Assembly: GCA_044356455.1 (NCBI GenBank)
Contig: JBIKWF010000059.1
Location: 1-26,077, forward strand
DNA length: 26,077 nucleotides
From: Bdellovibrionota bacterium
Lineage (GTDB): Bacteria; Bdellovibrionota_C; UBA2361; JBGSMV01
Direction of reading: 5' to 3'
The position numbers and the translations under genes are program-made. The notes under the pieces are model-generated. The model saw only the letters and a list, made by a program, of their open reading frames with translations, searched no databases and had not been told where the DNA came from. Shown here in pieces: positions 138 to 26,077 of the stretch; positions within the stretch are counted from its first letter, which is position 1; every line of letters begins with the position of its first letter.

Positions 138-240
138 AGGAACCTTCACTTGCCGAAGTAGTTGCCAAATCTTAGCCTAACGGCGAACTGGAGAGCTACA
201 CCGAAATAGAGTAGTTTAAGGAACCTCAGAAAGACTCTCC

Positions 241-315
241 TCTGTGTACCTCTGAGCCCTCTGTGGTGAAATTTTCATGAAGAAATTCACCACAGAGGAC
301 ACGGAGGTACACAGA
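241..315. repeat. Long palindrome of 9-10-bp periodic units (CTCTGTG.. / ..CACAGAG), copy A
   Basis: tctgtgtacctctgagccctctgtggtgaaattttca | tgaagaaattcaccacagaggacacggaggtacacaga; ~37-bp arms with few mismatches. Confidence 0.9.
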
Positions 316-326
316 AGTGTAATTAG

Positions 327-456
327 GGAACCTCTGAAAAACCTAGATATTTTATTTCTTTCCCTCCGTGTTCTCTGTGCCCTCTGTGGTTTTTCAACAA
401 TTTAAATCAACCACAGAGGGCACAGAGTTCACAGAGCAGATTTTTTCAGAGCTTCC
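327..456. mobile_element. Nested MITE-like element (inner shell) carrying palindrome copy B
   Basis: TTAG(323-326)-GGAACCTCTGAAAAACC ... TTTTTCAGAGCTTCC-ATAG(457-460); same terminal repeat family as 220-499. Confidence 0.65.
364..436. repeat. 9-bp-unit palindrome, copy B
   Basis: ctccgtgttctctgtgccctctgtggtt (364-391), AT-rich spacer, aaccacagagggcacagagttcacagag (409-436); three units per arm. Confidence 0.9.
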
Positions 457-540
457 ATAGATTGAGGCATATTAAGAATGGAGGTTTTTCAGAGGCTCCT
501 TAACCGCCAAGAATGTGCCCCCTAACCACACGAGTATCTC

Positions 541-2928: not shown

Positions 2929-2959
2929 GAGCTTCCCGAGCGAATCTCTGGCCAGCTTT

Positions 2960-3008
2960 CCCTTCGTGGTCTCTGTGGTCTTAGTGGTTGTTTTTAAAAA
3001 CAACAAAG
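2960..3008. repeat. 9-bp-unit palindrome, copy C (right arm decayed)
   Basis: cccttcgtggtctctgtggtcttagtggttgtttttaaaaacaacaaag aligns closely with 8905-8952; lies between convergent genes. Confidence 0.75.
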
Positions 3009-5466: not shown

Positions 5467-5877
5467 TTAGGCTCGTCTAACCTGAGCCAAGAATTCTATG
5501 AAATCGTCGAGATGTTTCTCGAGAATAGAATCCACGATTTTAAAATTGAGCTTCTGATATTCATGAATCGCAATATTTCGAAAACCAACCATGCGCTTCA
5601 TAGAAGCGGCTGTCTCTGAGGAGAGTAATTTTGCAGCAACGAGCAAATCAAAGCCATCTCGATTCGTCTGTGGAATGCCTAGCTGCTTTACCTTCGCCAC
5701 ATGCACGGAGAGACTGATCGCAAGCTCGCATGCCTGTTGCAGTGTAAGGATGATAGAGTCTTGCTTAAGCTCGTCTTCGACCCAGGCGAGCTGCTTTCCG
5801 CCGTGAAGCCGTTGAAGTTTCGCTACCGCACGCTCGAGGGCAGCAGATTTGTTTATTACTACGTTATCAATGACCAT
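5467..5877 (-). CDS. hepT: HepT-like HEPN ribonuclease toxin (DUF86), type VII TA
   Basis: RX4HXY motif (FRNIAIHEY), LQQACELAI, GIPQTNRDGFDLL; immediately downstream of an MNT gene. Confidence 0.92.
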   Translation of the reverse strand: MVIDNVVINKSAALERAVAKLQRLHGGKQLAWVEDELKQDSIILTLQQACELAISLSVHVAKVKQLGIPQTNRDGFDLLVAAKLLSSETAASMKRMVGFRNIAIHEYQKLNFKIVDSILEKHLDDFIEFLAQVRRA

Positions 5878-5878
5878 C

Positions 5879-6295
5879 TTAACTTTCCCCAGGTCTCCTC
5901 GACCCAGCGATAGGGCGATAGAACTCTTCTAAAAAATCTCTTCTTTGCTCATTAAAATCGGTATAGGCGCAAATTGCATACGTCTCAAACTCTTTCCGTG
6001 CCTCAGGGTCAAGGTCAAGAATTACCTTAGCTTTACTGACAATCTCCGCGCGAAAGACCTCGGACGCATGGCGAATATCTATAAGGTGAACGTCCCTATT
6101 CAGCGCAACTGCAATATCCTGCGAAATATTCCAAAGTTCGACTGAATCAACAGGCGGAGCGTTGTTGAGAAAAGCCAGATCAACATCGCTATCACTCCGT
6201 GCAGTATCGTCAGCCTGCGAGCCAAAAAGATACACCGCCTGGAGCGCACCAAACTTTGCACGAAGAATATCAATAGCAGGATTAAGGTTGATCAC
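5879..6295 (-). CDS. mntA: MntA-like minimal nucleotidyltransferase antitoxin
   Basis: AVYLFGSQADDTARSDSDVDLA (GSX10DXD). The start is estimated at GTG 6295 (ORF track extends to 6352). Confidence 0.9.
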   Translation of the reverse strand: MINLNPAIDILRAKFGALQAVYLFGSQADDTARSDSDVDLAFLNNAPPVDSVELWNISQDIAVALNRDVHLIDIRHASEVFRAEIVSKAKVILDLDPEARKEFETYAICAYTDFNEQRRDFLEEFYRPIAGSRRPGES

Positions 6296-6473
6296 TTTCA
6301 GACAGTAGCAAAGAGAGTATTGCCGAGAAAGTACGATCTGGACTTCACCCAAGCTGGAACCTATGACCCTGATATTGCTAAGGGATTAGAGCACCTCCAC
6401 GCGACATTCATTCTTGCCGAGCCGCCGCTGCAAATCATAGGAAACTATTTCAACAAATCTCCGATATCGGGGC

Positions 6474-8904: not shown

Positions 8905-8964
8905 CCCTTCGTGTTCTTAGTGTTCTTAGTGGTTGTTTTTACAAACCACTAAGAACACGAAGGG
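8905..8964. repeat. 9-bp-unit palindrome, copy D
   Basis: cccttcgtgttcttagtgttcttagtggtt - gtttttaca - aaccactaagaacacgaaggg; three units left, two right; between convergent genes. Confidence 0.85.
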
Positions 8965-8975
8965 TAAAAAGCATG

Positions 8976-15252: not shown

Positions 15253-15279
15253 AGGTAGGGCGCCCTGTCCCCAGGAGGC
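15253..15279 (+). repeat. GTAG-type REP-like sequence (degenerate copy)
   Basis: aggtagggcgccctgtcc is identical over 18 bp to 16865-16882. Confidence 0.7.
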
Positions 15280-15282
15280 AAT

Positions 15283-15344
15283 GTCACCTCGAGGCAGGGT
15301 CACCTCGAGGCAGGGTCACCTCGAGGCAGGGTCACCACGAGACA
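15283..15344 (+). repeat. 16-bp tandem repeat (3 perfect + 1 degenerate)
   Basis: (gtcacctcgaggcagg)x3 followed by gtcaccacgagaca; no spacers. Confidence 0.95.
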
Positions 15345-15432
15345 ATTTGGAAGATCCTGCAGCACACGGTGAGACTTGTCTCACAGAACAAGTCGCTTGA
15401 ACGGCAGAGCGCATTTTAAAGAGGATCCCTAA

Positions 15433-19758: not shown

Positions 19759-21144
19759 GTGACCATGGCAAAAACTCGCACTCTGTTATCACCTAAGGCC
19801 TTTATCACCTACTGCGCGTGGATGGGGGTTGGCATCGCGATGATGCTCGCGCCGTGGCTGCTGCCGCTTTGGGCGTTAGCGGGTGCTCTTGGCCTCTTGG
19901 TGATGTGGAGGGAAAGAAAAACACTGCCTGCGGCTCAAGATTTGCGCCTTGAACTGGTACTCGCCTCTGCGCCAGAACTCCACAAGCAATGTGCGCTCGT
20001 TGCCAACCTAGAGCCCACAGCCCCCCTCTCCAAAGGCCTGGCTCTGAGCGCTCAGCTCCTTTCACCAAAATCCAGGCTTCTGCGCTTTAGGATTCTGCGG
20101 GCGGACTTTCTGCCTCAAGCAACCACAAGCGGCAACTTCGCATTAGGCGCTCGCCTTGAAGCACAAGCAGAGCGACTTGGATTTGAAACAATCTCCGAAG
20201 TTACTTTGGAGCTTAGTTCCTGGGTAGGGTTTTGGAAGCGACAGATTACTCTGCCCCTCTCGCAGCCCCTCTCATTTCGCGTCTCCCCCTCCCTTCCTCC
20301 CCCTTCGCGAGAGCGCTTCAAGGCACTGATTGCGCAGCAGCGCATTCTGACCTCCGGCAACCGCCAAGCACTTCGCAGCCGCACGCGTGACCAATTTCAC
20401 TCTCTTCGCCCCTACCAGTACCCGGATCCGATAGCAGACCTCGATGCAAAGAAGACCGCCAAGTTTGGGAAACCCATGATCCGGCTCTTTGAGAGTCTGC
20501 ACCAACACCGCGTCATCATCGCGCTTGATGTAGGACGCTCAACACTCGGGACCATTGCCGGGTCTCCGATGTTTGATTTTTTTGTCTCGTCTATCTTGAG
20601 TGTTGCGAGGCATGCGATTCACCAGAAGGACGCATTAAGTTTTGTGGCGTTCTCTCAATCAGTGCACTGCAGCATCATTGGCGCAAAATCTATGCATGCG
20701 CTCGCTCCTCTTTTGCGCGGAGACGAAGCGCTTCTTCCTTGCGAGAAAGAAACTGACTACGAGGTACTGGCACGCTTTATTGCAAGACATGGAGGCGGGC
20801 GTAGCATCGTACTTTTATTTTCTGATGTATCCAGGCCCGCCACCCAAAGTGCCCTGCTCAGTGCCCTTAGGCCCCTTTGCAACAAACACCTCACCGTCGC
20901 TCTTGGCGTAAGCGATGCAAAGCGCACACTTGAGCACCGCATTCTGGACGAAGCTGAAGCAGGTCTCTTAACTCCCGAGGCTTACTGGGAGCTCTTCTAT
21001 AGCTATCATCTTGATGATTCCTTCACGCGCTTCCGCACTGCCGTTTCAGGGCTTGGCGGTGCCGCACTTCAGATTCCGCACACCTATTGGATGGGAACCA
21101 CGGATAAGGTTTACGAATTACTTCGCTCCTCAATGAGAATCTAG
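19759..21144 (+). CDS. DUF58 domain-containing (vWA-like) protein
   Basis: QFHSLRPYQYPDPIADLDAKKTAK, IIALDVGRS, ETDY, RSIVLLFSD; follows moxR. Confidence 0.85.
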   Translation: MTMAKTRTLLSPKAFITYCAWMGVGIAMMLAPWLLPLWALAGALGLLVMWRERKTLPAAQDLRLELVLASAPELHKQCALVANLEPTAPLSKGLALSAQLLSPKSRLLRFRILRADFLPQATTSGNFALGARLEAQAERLGFETISEVTLELSSWVGFWKRQITLPLSQPLSFRVSPSLPPPSRERFKALIAQQRILTSGNRQALRSRTRDQFHSLRPYQYPDPIADLDAKKTAKFGKPMIRLFESLHQHRVIIALDVGRSTLGTIAGSPMFDFFVSSILSVARHAIHQKDALSFVAFSQSVHCSIIGAKSMHALAPLLRGDEALLPCEKETDYEVLARFIARHGGGRSIVLLFSDVSRPATQSALLSALRPLCNKHLTVALGVSDAKRTLEHRILDEAEAGLLTPEAYWELFYSYHLDDSFTRFRTAVSGLGGAALQIPHTYWMGTTDKVYELLRSSMRI

Positions 21145-21319
21145 CTGGGCTGTCCCGCTGCCACCGCAACATGTAGGGCCAAGGATTCAACGGGACAGAC
21201 CCCTAGGAGTCTGTCCCGTAGGAAATTCCTACCACTACATGTTGTGGTGGCAACGGGACAGCCCACCTACGGATTGTGTCCAAAACGAAGATTTATGTTT
21301 CTACGGGACACACTCCTAG
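21141..21319. repeat. Cluster of nested inverted repeats built on TGTCCCG/CGGGACA units (REP/MITE-like)
   Basis: 35-bp arms 21142-21176 / 21235-21269 (3 mismatches), inner palindrome 21190-21219, small hairpin 21218-21232, further units to 21319; CTAG at unit boundaries. Confidence 0.85.
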
Positions 21320-21352
21320 CCGCGATTTCTTGGGGGCCTGAAGGAATCCTAG

Positions 21353-21482
21353 GGAATCTCTCAAAAAACCAACCTCTGTGTACCTCCGTGTCCTCTGTGT
21401 CCTCTGTGGTGAACTTCTTCAGGAAGATTTCACCACAGAGGTCTCAGAGGTACACAGAGGTGTATTAAGAATGGAGTTTTCC
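21353..21482. mobile_element. MITE-like element with CTAG target duplication carrying palindrome copy E
   Basis: CTAG(21349-52)-GGAATCTCTCAAAAAACC ... tattaagaatggagttttcc-CTAG(21483-86); shares palindrome and tattaagaatggag with 220-499. Confidence 0.7.
21373..21460. repeat. 9-bp-unit palindrome, copy E
   Basis: Its reverse complement matches 239-317 with 5 substitutions plus one extra 9-bp unit. Confidence 0.92.
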
Positions 21483-21487
21483 CTAGA

Positions 21488-23398: not shown

Positions 23399-23459
23399 CC
23401 TTTTATAGGAAACTTTTCGACCTTATTCACGAATATTAATGGTGGTGGAGCACCGAGAT

Positions 23460-23978
23460 ATGAGTGGATCGATAAAACCGATAGATCAAGTTCGAACCCT
23501 GATACATACCATTCGTGGTCAGAGGATTGTTCTCGACGTCGACTTGGCATCAGTTTACGGCACAACTACCAAGCGGCTAAATGAACAGGTTCGACGAAAC
23601 ATCGAGCGGTTCCCGGGCGAGTTTATGTTTCAGCTGTCAGATCAGGAAGTTACGGATTTGCGGTCGCAGATTGCGACCGCAAATTTAAGCATGCGACGGG
23701 CTAATCCGTATGCCTTCACTGAGCACGGCGCTTTAATGGCCGCCAATATCGTAAACAGTCCCTTGGCCATTCAATCCAGCATAGCGTTGGTCAAGGCGTT
23801 CATTGAGGCAAGAAGAATTCTGGGAGAATTGGCCGAACTCAAACGACGGCAATCGGACATCGAACGCCGCATGTTCAGTGGATTCACAGGACTGGAGCAA
23901 GAACTACAGGAAATACGCTTTCTAATTTCGGCCTTGCAAGAGCCTGAAGTAAAGAAAAAGGGAAAACTTGGATTTTGA
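23460..23978 (+). CDS. ORF6N domain (KilA-N-like) DNA-binding protein
   Basis: IHTIRGQRIVLDVDLASVYG, LNEQVRRNIERFPGEFMFQL, PYAFTEHGALMAA, C-terminal KLGF; GGAG RBS before ATG 23460. Confidence 0.92.
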   Translation: MSGSIKPIDQVRTLIHTIRGQRIVLDVDLASVYGTTTKRLNEQVRRNIERFPGEFMFQLSDQEVTDLRSQIATANLSMRRANPYAFTEHGALMAANIVNSPLAIQSSIALVKAFIEARRILGELAELKRRQSDIERRMFSGFTGLEQELQEIRFLISALQEPEVKKKGKLGF

Positions 23979-24394: not shown

Positions 24395-24451
24395 CCAGTC
24401 AAAACATTGCCAGTCAAAACATTGCCAGTCAAAACCATTGCCAGTCGAAAC
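24395..24451. repeat. 15-bp tandem repeat spanning a gene 3' end
   Basis: ccagtcaaaacattg x2, ccagtcaaaaccattg (16 bp), ccagtcgaaac. Confidence 0.9.
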
Positions 24452-24885: not shown

Positions 24886-24943
24886 GGAGAACGGTTAGTC
24901 TGAACAGTCCGCGATAGCGAATCTGTTGAGGCGTTTGTTATCC
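24886..24943 (-). other. attC-like site 2
   Basis: Minus strand GGATAAC-aaacg-CCTCAACAg-a-ttcgc..gcgga-cTGTTCAG-actaacc-GTTCTCC; fills almost the whole gap between stop and RBS. Confidence 0.7.
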
Positions 24944-24945
24944 AG

Positions 24946-25368
24946 CTACGACCGGCTACCGTTAAACAACGCACTCCATTGATCGGGTGTGTACTGAAGT
25001 TTGAGTCGTTCGAATTCTTCCCTAAATTTCGAATTGGCCTCGTCGCACCTTTTAATAACTGCATGAATATCCTCGTCGCTGGGCTGTGTAATATTAATTC
25101 CTTCCGCCCTCGCTTTGGCGATAATTTCCGGTCTGAGCCGCGCCGCGAATTTCTGATCTGAAAATGTGAAGTTGAGATCCACGGAAGCATCAAGGGCTTT
25201 GGTAGCCGATCCAAGAGCTGCGACTACACGTTGCTCACGCTCCGAGATTGGCGCAAAGCGATCGGTGGTGGGTGCGGTGAGCGCGTCAAATGCACGGGTT
25301 CCACCAACGCCGGAAGCGATACCAATGCCGGCTACAAGAGCAGTTATTTTGCCGTTAATCTGAACCAT
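24946..25368 (-). CDS. Hypothetical exported helical protein (140 aa)
   Basis: AGGGAG RBS, hydrophobic Gly/Ala N-terminus; bounded by attC-like sites. Confidence 0.7.
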   Translation of the reverse strand: MVQINGKITALVAGIGIASGVGGTRAFDALTAPTTDRFAPISEREQRVVAALGSATKALDASVDLNFTFSDQKFAARLRPEIIAKARAEGINITQPSDEDIHAVIKRCDEANSKFREEFERLKLQYTPDQWSALFNGSRS

Positions 25369-25450: not shown

Positions 25451-25512
25451 GGCTAACGGCTATGAGCAGCGGTGTGACCGCAGGGAGCATTCGCTGGCTC
25501 AATTTGTTCTCT
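25451..25512 (-). other. attC recombination site 1 (integron cassette site)
   Basis: Minus strand AGAGAAC-aaatt-GAGCCAGC-gaatgctccctgcggtcacacc-GCTGCTC-atagcc-GTTAGCC: R''/5 nt/8-bp L'' with extra C/7-bp L'/6 nt/R', 62 bp. Confidence 0.8.
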
Positions 25513-25561
25513 TCCGTATTTCTAACTTTGGTGTGGTTTCTAGGCAACTTTTCTGCCGATT

Positions 25562-25612
25562 TGTCGATTAGGGTTAGAAGGGCTAGGTCGCGGAGACACG
25601 GAGACCGCGGAG
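25562..25612 (+). repeat. Left inverted repeat of the GxxExxY unit
   Basis: Core cgcggagacacggagaccgcggag (25589-25612) ends at the ATG; imperfect extension tgtcgattagggttagaagggctag. Confidence 0.92.
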
Positions 25613-26029
25613 ATGGAAATCAACCAGATTACCGAAAAGATTATAGGTGCGGCTATCAAGGTGCACTCACTTCTAGGACCAGGCCTCTTCGAGCAAGTCT
25701 ACAAGGCATGCCTATTCCGCGAGCTCCAAAAGCAGAGCATCAAGGTTGCCAAAGAGGTCATGCTTCCGGTGCTCTATGACTGCGAATTAATAGACCTAGG
25801 GTACCGCCTAGACCTGCTAGTAGAGTCAGAGGTAATCGTTGAGTTAAAGGCGATCGAACGTCTTACCAGAGTCCATAGAACCCAGGTGCTAACTTATCTG
25901 AAGCTATCTCAAAAAACTGTTGGACTACTCATAAACTTCAATGCTGTACCGCTTAAGGATGGAATCGTGCGCATCGTTCGAGGTTACGCAGGACCTAAAC
26001 CCTCCGCGGTCTCCGTGTCTCCGCGCTAA
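25613..26029 (+). CDS. GxxExxY protein (PD-(D/E)xK nuclease superfamily)
   Basis: ITEKIIGAAIKVHSLLGPGLFEQVY (GxxExxY), YRLDLLVE..VIVELKA, QVLTYLK, GLLINFN. Confidence 0.95.
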   Translation: MEINQITEKIIGAAIKVHSLLGPGLFEQVYKACLFRELQKQSIKVAKEVMLPVLYDCELIDLGYRLDLLVESEVIVELKAIERLTRVHRTQVLTYLKLSQKTVGLLINFNAVPLKDGIVRIVRGYAGPKPSAVSVSPR

Positions 26030-26051
26030 TCCCTTCTTAACCCCTTCGACA
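26002..26051 (-). repeat. Right inverted repeat of the GxxExxY unit
   Basis: ctccgcggtctccgtgtctccgcg (26002-26025) is the exact reverse complement of 25589-25612; extension ctaatcccttcttaaccccttcgaca. Confidence 0.92.
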
Positions 26052-26077
26052 GAGTTTCCTCGAACATTCAAGTAGGA

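Follow-up and report, generated by a model that had tools for sequence, protein, structure and literature searches.

The window analysed here, the whole stretch of 26,077 nucleotides, is one contig (C216) of a 4.7-Mb draft genome (G000) that is 93% complete. Near its right end lies a gene of the GxxExxY family enclosed by inverted repeats, in a unit that is cut by the contig end. The features of this unit and of the DNA beside it are as follows.

24886..24943, minus strand: next attC-like site, assigned from sequence; R boxes pair in the fold of its bottom strand (z -2.6)
25451..25512, minus strand: attC of the cassette, made up of an inverse core and a 5-nt spacer, L boxes containing a single bulged base, then a 6-nt spacer and the GTT core
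25513..25588, plus strand: left module, with a promoter-like motif (~25543-25569) facing the gene and an imperfect outer left arm; 19 BLAST matches in the genome
25589..25612, plus strand: left arm, three 8-9-nt units; 44 matches genome-wide at 4 or fewer mismatches
25613..26029, plus strand: GxxExxY / PDDEXK_3 gene, 138 aa, in the direction opposite to its own attC
26002..26025, minus strand: right arm, a perfect inverse of the left arm that doubles as coding sequence for the C-terminal residues of the protein
26026..26077, plus strand: right module, truncated by the contig end; 26 matches in the genome

An initial annotation, made from the letters of this DNA, had described a perfect 24-bp inverted repeat around the gene, imperfectly extended to ~50 bp, with a right arm that supplies the last codons of the protein. 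All of this is borne out. In an inverted-repeat search of the window, the 24-nt arms (25589-25612 and 26002-26025) are 100% complementary at a distance of 389 nt, and by an arithmetic estimate the chance expectation for such a pair in 26 kb is about 1e-6. The open reading frame (25613-26029, 138 aa) starts immediately 3' of the left arm, and its final residues are encoded by the right arm. In the predicted RNA fold, ~25560-25612 pairs with ~26002-26056 (z -6.4; 0 of 100 shuffles as good), which matches the imperfect extension. The left arm does end at the ATG and does supply GGAG, as had been noted, but the GGAG that abuts the ATG is unfit as a ribosome-binding site because it is too near the start; judged by spacing, the GGAG of the middle unit (25600-25603), 9 nt upstream of the ATG, is a plausible one. 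The arms likewise bracket the gene, but the repeated unit is not confined to them; it begins with the attC (25451-25512) and ends a few bases outside the contig. An Rfam search of the window gave no match.

The motif in the left module is a putative promoter. It occurs upstream of 22 of 41 homologues in the phylum versus 0 of 140 controls, a comparison in which the motif was defined on these same loci. We dropped a reading of it as a sigma-28 promoter, since it is absent upstream of a flagellin-like gene and has 84 matches in the genome versus 56 in shuffled sequence. Several ORF6N-like genes on contigs C24, C39, C127 and C196 of this genome are also preceded by the promoter-like motif of the GxxExxY cassette, and the ORF6N gene of the window (23439-23978) is likewise reversed inside the cassette array there.

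In a profile search, the only profile matched by the open reading frame was PF13366 (138.7 bits, cut-off 22), and its score against the GxxExxY model TIGR04256 (140 bits, cut-off 35) also places it in this very large family, which comprises 18,443 clusters at 50% identity. The entry for PF13366 in one published listing gives its function as "Unknown" (PMC3424549). In an alignment of 106 sequences (the query plus 105 single-domain matches among the best 150 of the 18,443), G22, G24, E27, Y30, D67, E77, K79 and F109 are invariant, Q91 is conserved in 105 and Y95 in 103, and the window protein has E27, D67, E77-x-K79 and Q91xxxY95 all intact. A helical QxxxY motif after the PD-(D/E)xK core has been described for RecB-family nucleases and is a feature that GxxExxY proteins share with the RecB/Cas4 group (PMC2475608). 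An alignment-based AlphaFold model (pLDDT 95) was used in preference to a single-sequence model (pLDDT 33). Structure-search matches to it are weak and confined to the PD-(D/E)xK superfamily, led by the Cas4 proteins SSO0001 (Z 8.0, the best; rmsd 10.9, 107 residues aligned) and Pcal_0546, with BpuSI at Z 7.8 (rmsd 3.3, 95 aligned); a search of PDB sequences with the protein gave no match.

By motifs and fold, the GxxExxY protein would be a RecB-type PD-(D/E)xK nuclease, with a predicted activity to match. The initial annotation had placed the family in this superfamily and outside the recognised transposase classes; the intact motifs and the restriction-endonuclease-like fold matches uphold the first point, and neither profile nor fold searches gave an HUH/Y1 match. 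Two narrower identities were considered and rejected. The protein is unlike Cas4, as it has 138 aa, 15-20% identity, no CRISPR context and only 2 Cys, none in conserved columns, whereas the Fe-S cluster needs four. Identity as a cruciform resolvase was not adopted, as the archaeal Holliday-junction resolvase Hjc is one of many matches, at only Z 6.4. Tandem two-domain GxxExxY fusions of ~280 aa also occur (proteins P0001-P0005, P0007, P0009 and P0012).

The unit in the window lies in an integron cassette, in a genome that has IntI elsewhere. Its attC, with a crossover between 25457 and 25456, was read from the sequence and found by one detector, and two stricter detectors missed it; the minimum-free-energy fold of this site alone is not significant (z -1.0), and an attC of the same family on contig C1 folds with paired boxes. 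A small cassette array extends leftward from it, with genes at 24946-25368 and beyond on the minus strand. The integrase is encoded on contig C92, where a protein scores 428.8 bits against TIGR02249 (cut-off 265); the sites of the cassette array beside it adopt attC folds. Three 15-16-nt tandem repeats lie at the end of a cassette gene (24401-24451), with length variants in metagenome contigs.

Homology among copies of the unit spans attC, a 76-bp left module, arm, interior, arm and a 60-bp right module. It runs past the arms by ~137 bp leftward and ~60 bp rightward, reaching integron junctions, so the arms do not form the boundaries that an insertion sequence would have. There are 15 copies of the attC in the genome, 12 of which stop at GTT, each followed by a different sequence (nine belonging to the GxxExxY-type unit and three to other cassettes); the remaining 3 enter a tandem copy. 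At the opposite, 5' cassette end, G stands at the crossover in 20 of 24 junctions, and in the 24 aligned junctions of other copies the right module ends at the G|TT junction ~7 nt beyond the point where the window is cut. In G087, three copies that are 98-100% identical show homology only between attC crossover points.

The interior is of two main kinds. It is the gene at 3 left and 5 right junctions and an unrelated 118-bp segment at 13 left and 17 right junctions, the last figure including a chimera on contig C127. At least 5 gene-bearing and 16 gene-less right ends thus have this shell and these arms in common; because of contig breaks the counts are inexact, and an overlap of C127 with C130 is possible. 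Ten full copies with the 118-bp interior are 87-99% identical, and the gene and the 118-bp segment abut the arms at identical bases. The segment has no long open frame and was not found in 60 relatives; as a remnant of the gene it was rejected, with an alignment score of 17-20 versus a shuffled median of 18. Gene-bearing and gene-less forms with identical arms thus exist; no empty-site allele was found for any free arm (see below). In contigs of four lake-metagenome runs from four studies, one possibly the source of the assembly, the 118-bp interior is joined to the right arm in 4 of 4, and the right end is joined to attC in 3 of 4, where a circle is indistinguishable from a tandem copy.

The attI-position region of C92 recurs 4 times without an integrase, at 71-84% identity, and each copy directly adjoins the end of a cassette of the present type. 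These orphan attI/promoter platforms of ~210 bp lie on contigs C40, C99, C173 and C196 (compared with C92 at L111:1233-1480); their divergence exceeds that of the cassette copies, which suggests separate insertions. Across the phylum, an attC-like site lies upstream of the gene at 15 of 41 loci versus 1 of 140 controls, a count with several loci per genome and three from G000. The boundaries of the cassette are thus observed, and from known integron chemistry it follows that IntI would be the spreading agent. Spread by phage was not supported by record searches, in which 50,697 phage records gave no match, a single-pattern scan gave one viral contig, and plasmid records numbered 8.

In its attC with paired R and L boxes and its G|TT crossover, the unit resembles integron cassettes, including CALIN arrays and SALIN attG singles (PMC4889954; 10.1101/2022.09.11.507474). 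It also resembles them in where it inserts (attI, positions behind attC, and scattered GTT), with IntI elsewhere and an ORF-less form allowed. Cassettes are described as inserting at short GWT sites in genomes (10.1101/2022.09.11.507474), and ORF-less and self-promoted cassettes are known, although promoters are rare in cassettes (PMC4889954). Two properties set the unit apart from usual cassettes. First, a single genome holds ~20 copies of this shell, some with the gene and some without it. Second, the inner, arm-bounded module exists without integrons in other phyla.

On C127 (L115:560-1165), attC and the left module lie on both sides of an arm-118bp-arm segment, as if arm-recombined, which is possibly an assembly artefact, and the 141-bp interior on C172 begins with sequence similar to the start of the gene. 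The C127 flanks and the C172 interior are consistent with exchange of interiors by repair at the arms, but ordinary recombination among the ~20 long flanks that the copies share, or an error of assembly, could also account for the swaps.

The arm unit is not restricted to the cassette. The initial annotation had listed five gene-less palindromes elsewhere in the window with the 8-9-nt unit of the gene arms; the unit is confirmed at these places, partially at 2957-3008.

216..503, unstranded: outer MITE with arm doublet 239-318; same 4-mer at both ends
323-460, unstranded: nested MITE with doublet 362-436, inside the MITE 216..503
2957..3008, unstranded: partial free doublet of the CACTAAG-type class
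8905..8970, unstranded: free arm doublet with CACTAAG-type unit; no MITE ends or attC nearby
21349..21486, unstranded: MITE around arm doublet 21372-21461, with an identical 4-mer at each end

Three of the five lie inside MITE shells. In the whole genome, three-unit arms number 773 versus 0 in a shuffle, with 204 outward pairs, mostly at one spacing, and they divide by carrier into 588 beside MITE ends, 35 of cassette type and 150 free. The MITE is bounded by short terminal inverted repeats and duplicates a 4-bp target, (C/T)TA(A/G); identical 4-mers stand at the ends of 142 of 276 copies versus 58.6 when permuted (permuted maximum 75). We take the shell to be of the IS5 group, with a YTAR target. 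This likeness concerns the shell of most gene-less doublets, not the GxxExxY unit. Of 253 inward end pairs less than 400 bp apart, 232 have arms. Because the same ends surround arm-free interiors in other genomes (G019, G052, G073 and G104), MITE ends and arms are independent, and the shell carries at least 4 distinct arm doublets. A cognate transposase was found neither in the 93%-complete assembly nor at 30 loci with MITE ends, and a DUF772 search for one returned nothing. A transposase on C213, presumably IS4-like, was rejected as the mobiliser, as its terminal ends differ. The window also holds a second MITE family (21203-21319, with a related copy at 21142-21269), armless and with different ends, which forms 75 inward pairs genome-wide and is repeatedly inserted in the left module of the cassette, where it separates the promoter-like motif from the left arm. 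Elsewhere in the window lie four to five 16-nt tandem repeats between genes (15267-15346) and a HepT-like ribonuclease and nucleotidyltransferase pair (5467-6352), an ordinary toxin-antitoxin-type module.

The initial annotation had suggested that the unit may be the autonomous member of a repeat family, with its nuclease propagating the palindromes. This is not supported here, as the copies are bounded by integron crossovers and most arms stand at MITE ends; the doublet is not itself the moving unit for the 588 MITE-linked and 35 cassette arms. More generally, one could propose that the arm-gene-arm unit is an autonomous mobile element whose nuclease transposes gene-less palindromes. The free arms speak for this proposal, since they occur both as singlets (66) and in doublets (48 arms), with unique flanks. 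So does the state outside the phylum, where attC is not above background (2 of 78 versus 5 of 294 controls in one set, 0 of 57 versus 8 of 181 in another) and the module with its arms must be placed by other means. Yet no clear target duplication was found at 24 free doublets, where the longest direct repeat is 3.75 versus 3.43 permuted (15 of 300 as high). Copy homology here and in G087 runs past the arms to the crossovers, and the genome yielded no copy of arm, gene and arm whose flanks were unrelated on either side. With transposase motif and fold absent as well, we regard an autonomous element as improbable. At the window locus, the module of nuclease and repeat thus rides in an integron cassette rather than in an element with demonstrated autonomy.

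A further possibility is that the GxxExxY gene is passive cargo and that some other enzyme, either a host factor or a Y1 protein like RAYT, moves the arms, which would be REP-like repeats. The genome does encode two proteins of 310-324 aa with weak Y1_Tnp matches, on contigs C191 (L284) and C42 (L285), which we take to be RAYT-like; however, no arms lie near them. Moreover, among 47 listed inward arm pairs, whose interiors are partly annotated, those with closely matching arms 361-400 bp apart are the GxxExxY loci on C1, C138 and C216. Passive carriage would fit the arm-rich genomes in which no gene was found, but not an arm type that tracks the GxxExxY subfamily (both below), and we consider it very improbable.

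The association between gene and arms extends across the family. From 251 confirmed relatives in GTDB genomes, 80 loci were taken, 2 of which were dropped as too close to a contig end (n=78). An inverted repeat scoring at least 24 spans the gene at 61 of the 78 homologues versus 8 of 1,114 shifted control intervals, so that the flank survey suggested by the initial annotation finds arms at most homologues. Two-unit arms of the same consensus, inward on both sides, flank 41 of 78 versus 1 of 1,114 controls, and the arm unit lies beside the gene in 13 named phyla. A second, distant subfamily was sampled at 80 metagenome loci, from which the source of the query itself and 13 unusable near-end loci were excluded (n=66). 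Here inverted arms with a TGATT-type unit occur at 40 of 66 loci versus 1 of 266 controls, and the first-type unit at 0 of 66; this set consists of close kin of one query, in hosts of unknown taxonomy, and kinship inflates the contrast between subfamilies. A quick tree of 127 rows places the two arm types in different clades with support 100; inside the first of these, a variant of the unit clusters (9 changes versus 17.9 shuffled). A third arm unit (AGAGCAGCGAG-like) was seen in a GxxExxY subclade within attC cassettes (L170, L199, L190-L192 and L081).

Arm abundance was compared among 77 genomes of the phylum that are at least 90% complete. At least 5 three-unit arms are present in 20 of 26 gene-bearing versus 7 of 51 gene-lacking genomes; for IntI as a control trait, the figures are 14 of 33 with and 13 of 44 without. 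The two-by-two table of gene and arms overstates the association because kin are not independent. Arms track the gene in this comparison, which the initial annotation had proposed, but five draft assemblies with at least 20 arms (G012, G015, G057, G062 and G067) have no gene found, and in six genomes with the gene the tested pattern occurs in fewer than 5 arms. G057, 96% complete, has ~227 near-identical arms, mostly as inward doublets 32 bp apart; its loci L124-L153 are a candidate case for an alternative mobiliser. In G031, which belongs to another family, an identical 24-bp arm forms arrays of alternating orientation with unrelated spacers of ~85 and ~110 bp (L167, L164 and L155), and no GxxExxY gene was found there. 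Overall, a specific nuclease-repeat link is supported, as the arm unit follows the protein subfamily and its abundance tracks the gene better than IntI.

How might a nuclease, an integrase and a transposase share these repeats? We give an even chance to the explanation that a RecB/Cas4-type nuclease recognises and cuts its own arms and that most copies are moved by IntI and a transposase. The core module would then be a small PD-(D/E)xK nuclease with inverted arms of about three 8-10-nt units. The protein would recognise its own arm, as duplex DNA or extruded hairpin, and would nick or cut within or beside it. Host repair or recombination at cut arms would swap, delete or copy the DNA between them and seed new arms; such repair would also keep protein and repeat matched and would leave free singlets, doublets and filled/empty pairs. 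In the transcript, to judge from the computed fold, the arms would pair over the ribosome-binding site and may limit expression. In this genome and phylum, the module has been captured as an integron cassette, reversed and with its own promoter-like motif, and IntI would have placed both the filled cassette and the form derived from it without the gene, using sites that resemble attI, positions behind attC and dispersed GTT sites. Most gene-less doublets are carried inside the DDE-type MITE, for which target duplication is observed. Against this explanation stand the arm-rich draft genomes in which no gene was found, the modest fold matches, the free CACTAAG-type arms, which match none of the three assembled paralogues exactly, and the excess of free singlets over arms in doublets. 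An active role of the nuclease is possible because at least four doublets occur in one shell, free arms exist, and the G031 arms enclose unrelated spacers.

The arms could instead be a control device, an operator array and/or mRNA stem, of a toxic or defensive nuclease that targets other DNA (phage, plasmid, or self as addiction), with dispersed arms as passengers or decoys. The transcript fold that pairs the arms across the start region would suit this role, as would the reversed orientation and own promoter-like motif, which are unusual in cassettes, where promoters are rare (PMC4889954). An operator role would also account for the subfamily-specific units, another vehicle is at hand for 623 of the 773 arms, and the gene is patchy and often broken among relatives. 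Such a device would, however, leave unexplained the ~150 free arms, the presence of four or more doublets in the same kind of MITE shell, the arm-rich genomes that track the gene, and why a gene-less cassette with perfect arms has spread. We therefore hold it to be somewhat unlikely.

The arm-cutting explanation, which we continue to prefer, invites comparison with REP/REPIN-RAYT systems, REPtrons and TIRtrons, where an analogous layout is found with Y1 transposases. These share with the present system a single small nuclease gene between inverted repeat flanks, hundreds of gene-less copies of the repeat in the form of hairpin doublets at fixed spacing, and repeat-specific paralogues (PMC3116915, PMC3733652). 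The differences are also clear. The enzyme here is PD-(D/E)xK rather than HUH/Y1, and its gene is multi-copy, patchy and often broken. The arms are short tandem arrays in which no GTAG or CGTC tag was seen, and most doublets in this genome lie inside a DDE-type MITE. The RAYT/REPIN-like autonomous role that the initial annotation had proposed is not sustained, both because the protein is not HUH/Y1 and because no gene was found in arm-rich genomes such as G057.

In the literature searched, largely outside subscription journals, no description of the GxxExxY-arm link or of the cassette was found; one passage that mentions GxxExxY names it only beside a reverse transcriptase. The pairing of gene and arms is real and probably undescribed as a family trait. 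Tentatively, GxxExxY proteins may serve as the enzymes in a class of repeat system that is so far undescribed, in which a minimal RecB-type nuclease that recognises the tandem arm of its subfamily would, together with host repair, copy arms and exchange arm-bounded DNA. If so, the system would parallel REP-RAYT on an unrelated fold, and its arms would repeatedly board cassettes and MITEs, which would account for several doublets in one MITE shell and for a gene-less cassette amplified ~16-fold. The locus itself presents a selfish-looking module that exploits an integron, with ~20 copies of one cassette, and it cautions that an inverted repeat flanking a gene need not delimit the moving unit. 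For the family, a subfamily-specific arm offers a direct substrate test for PF13366 with a specificity control built in. If the nuclease does act on the arms, a second, unrelated enzyme class would stand behind abundant bacterial palindromic repeats.
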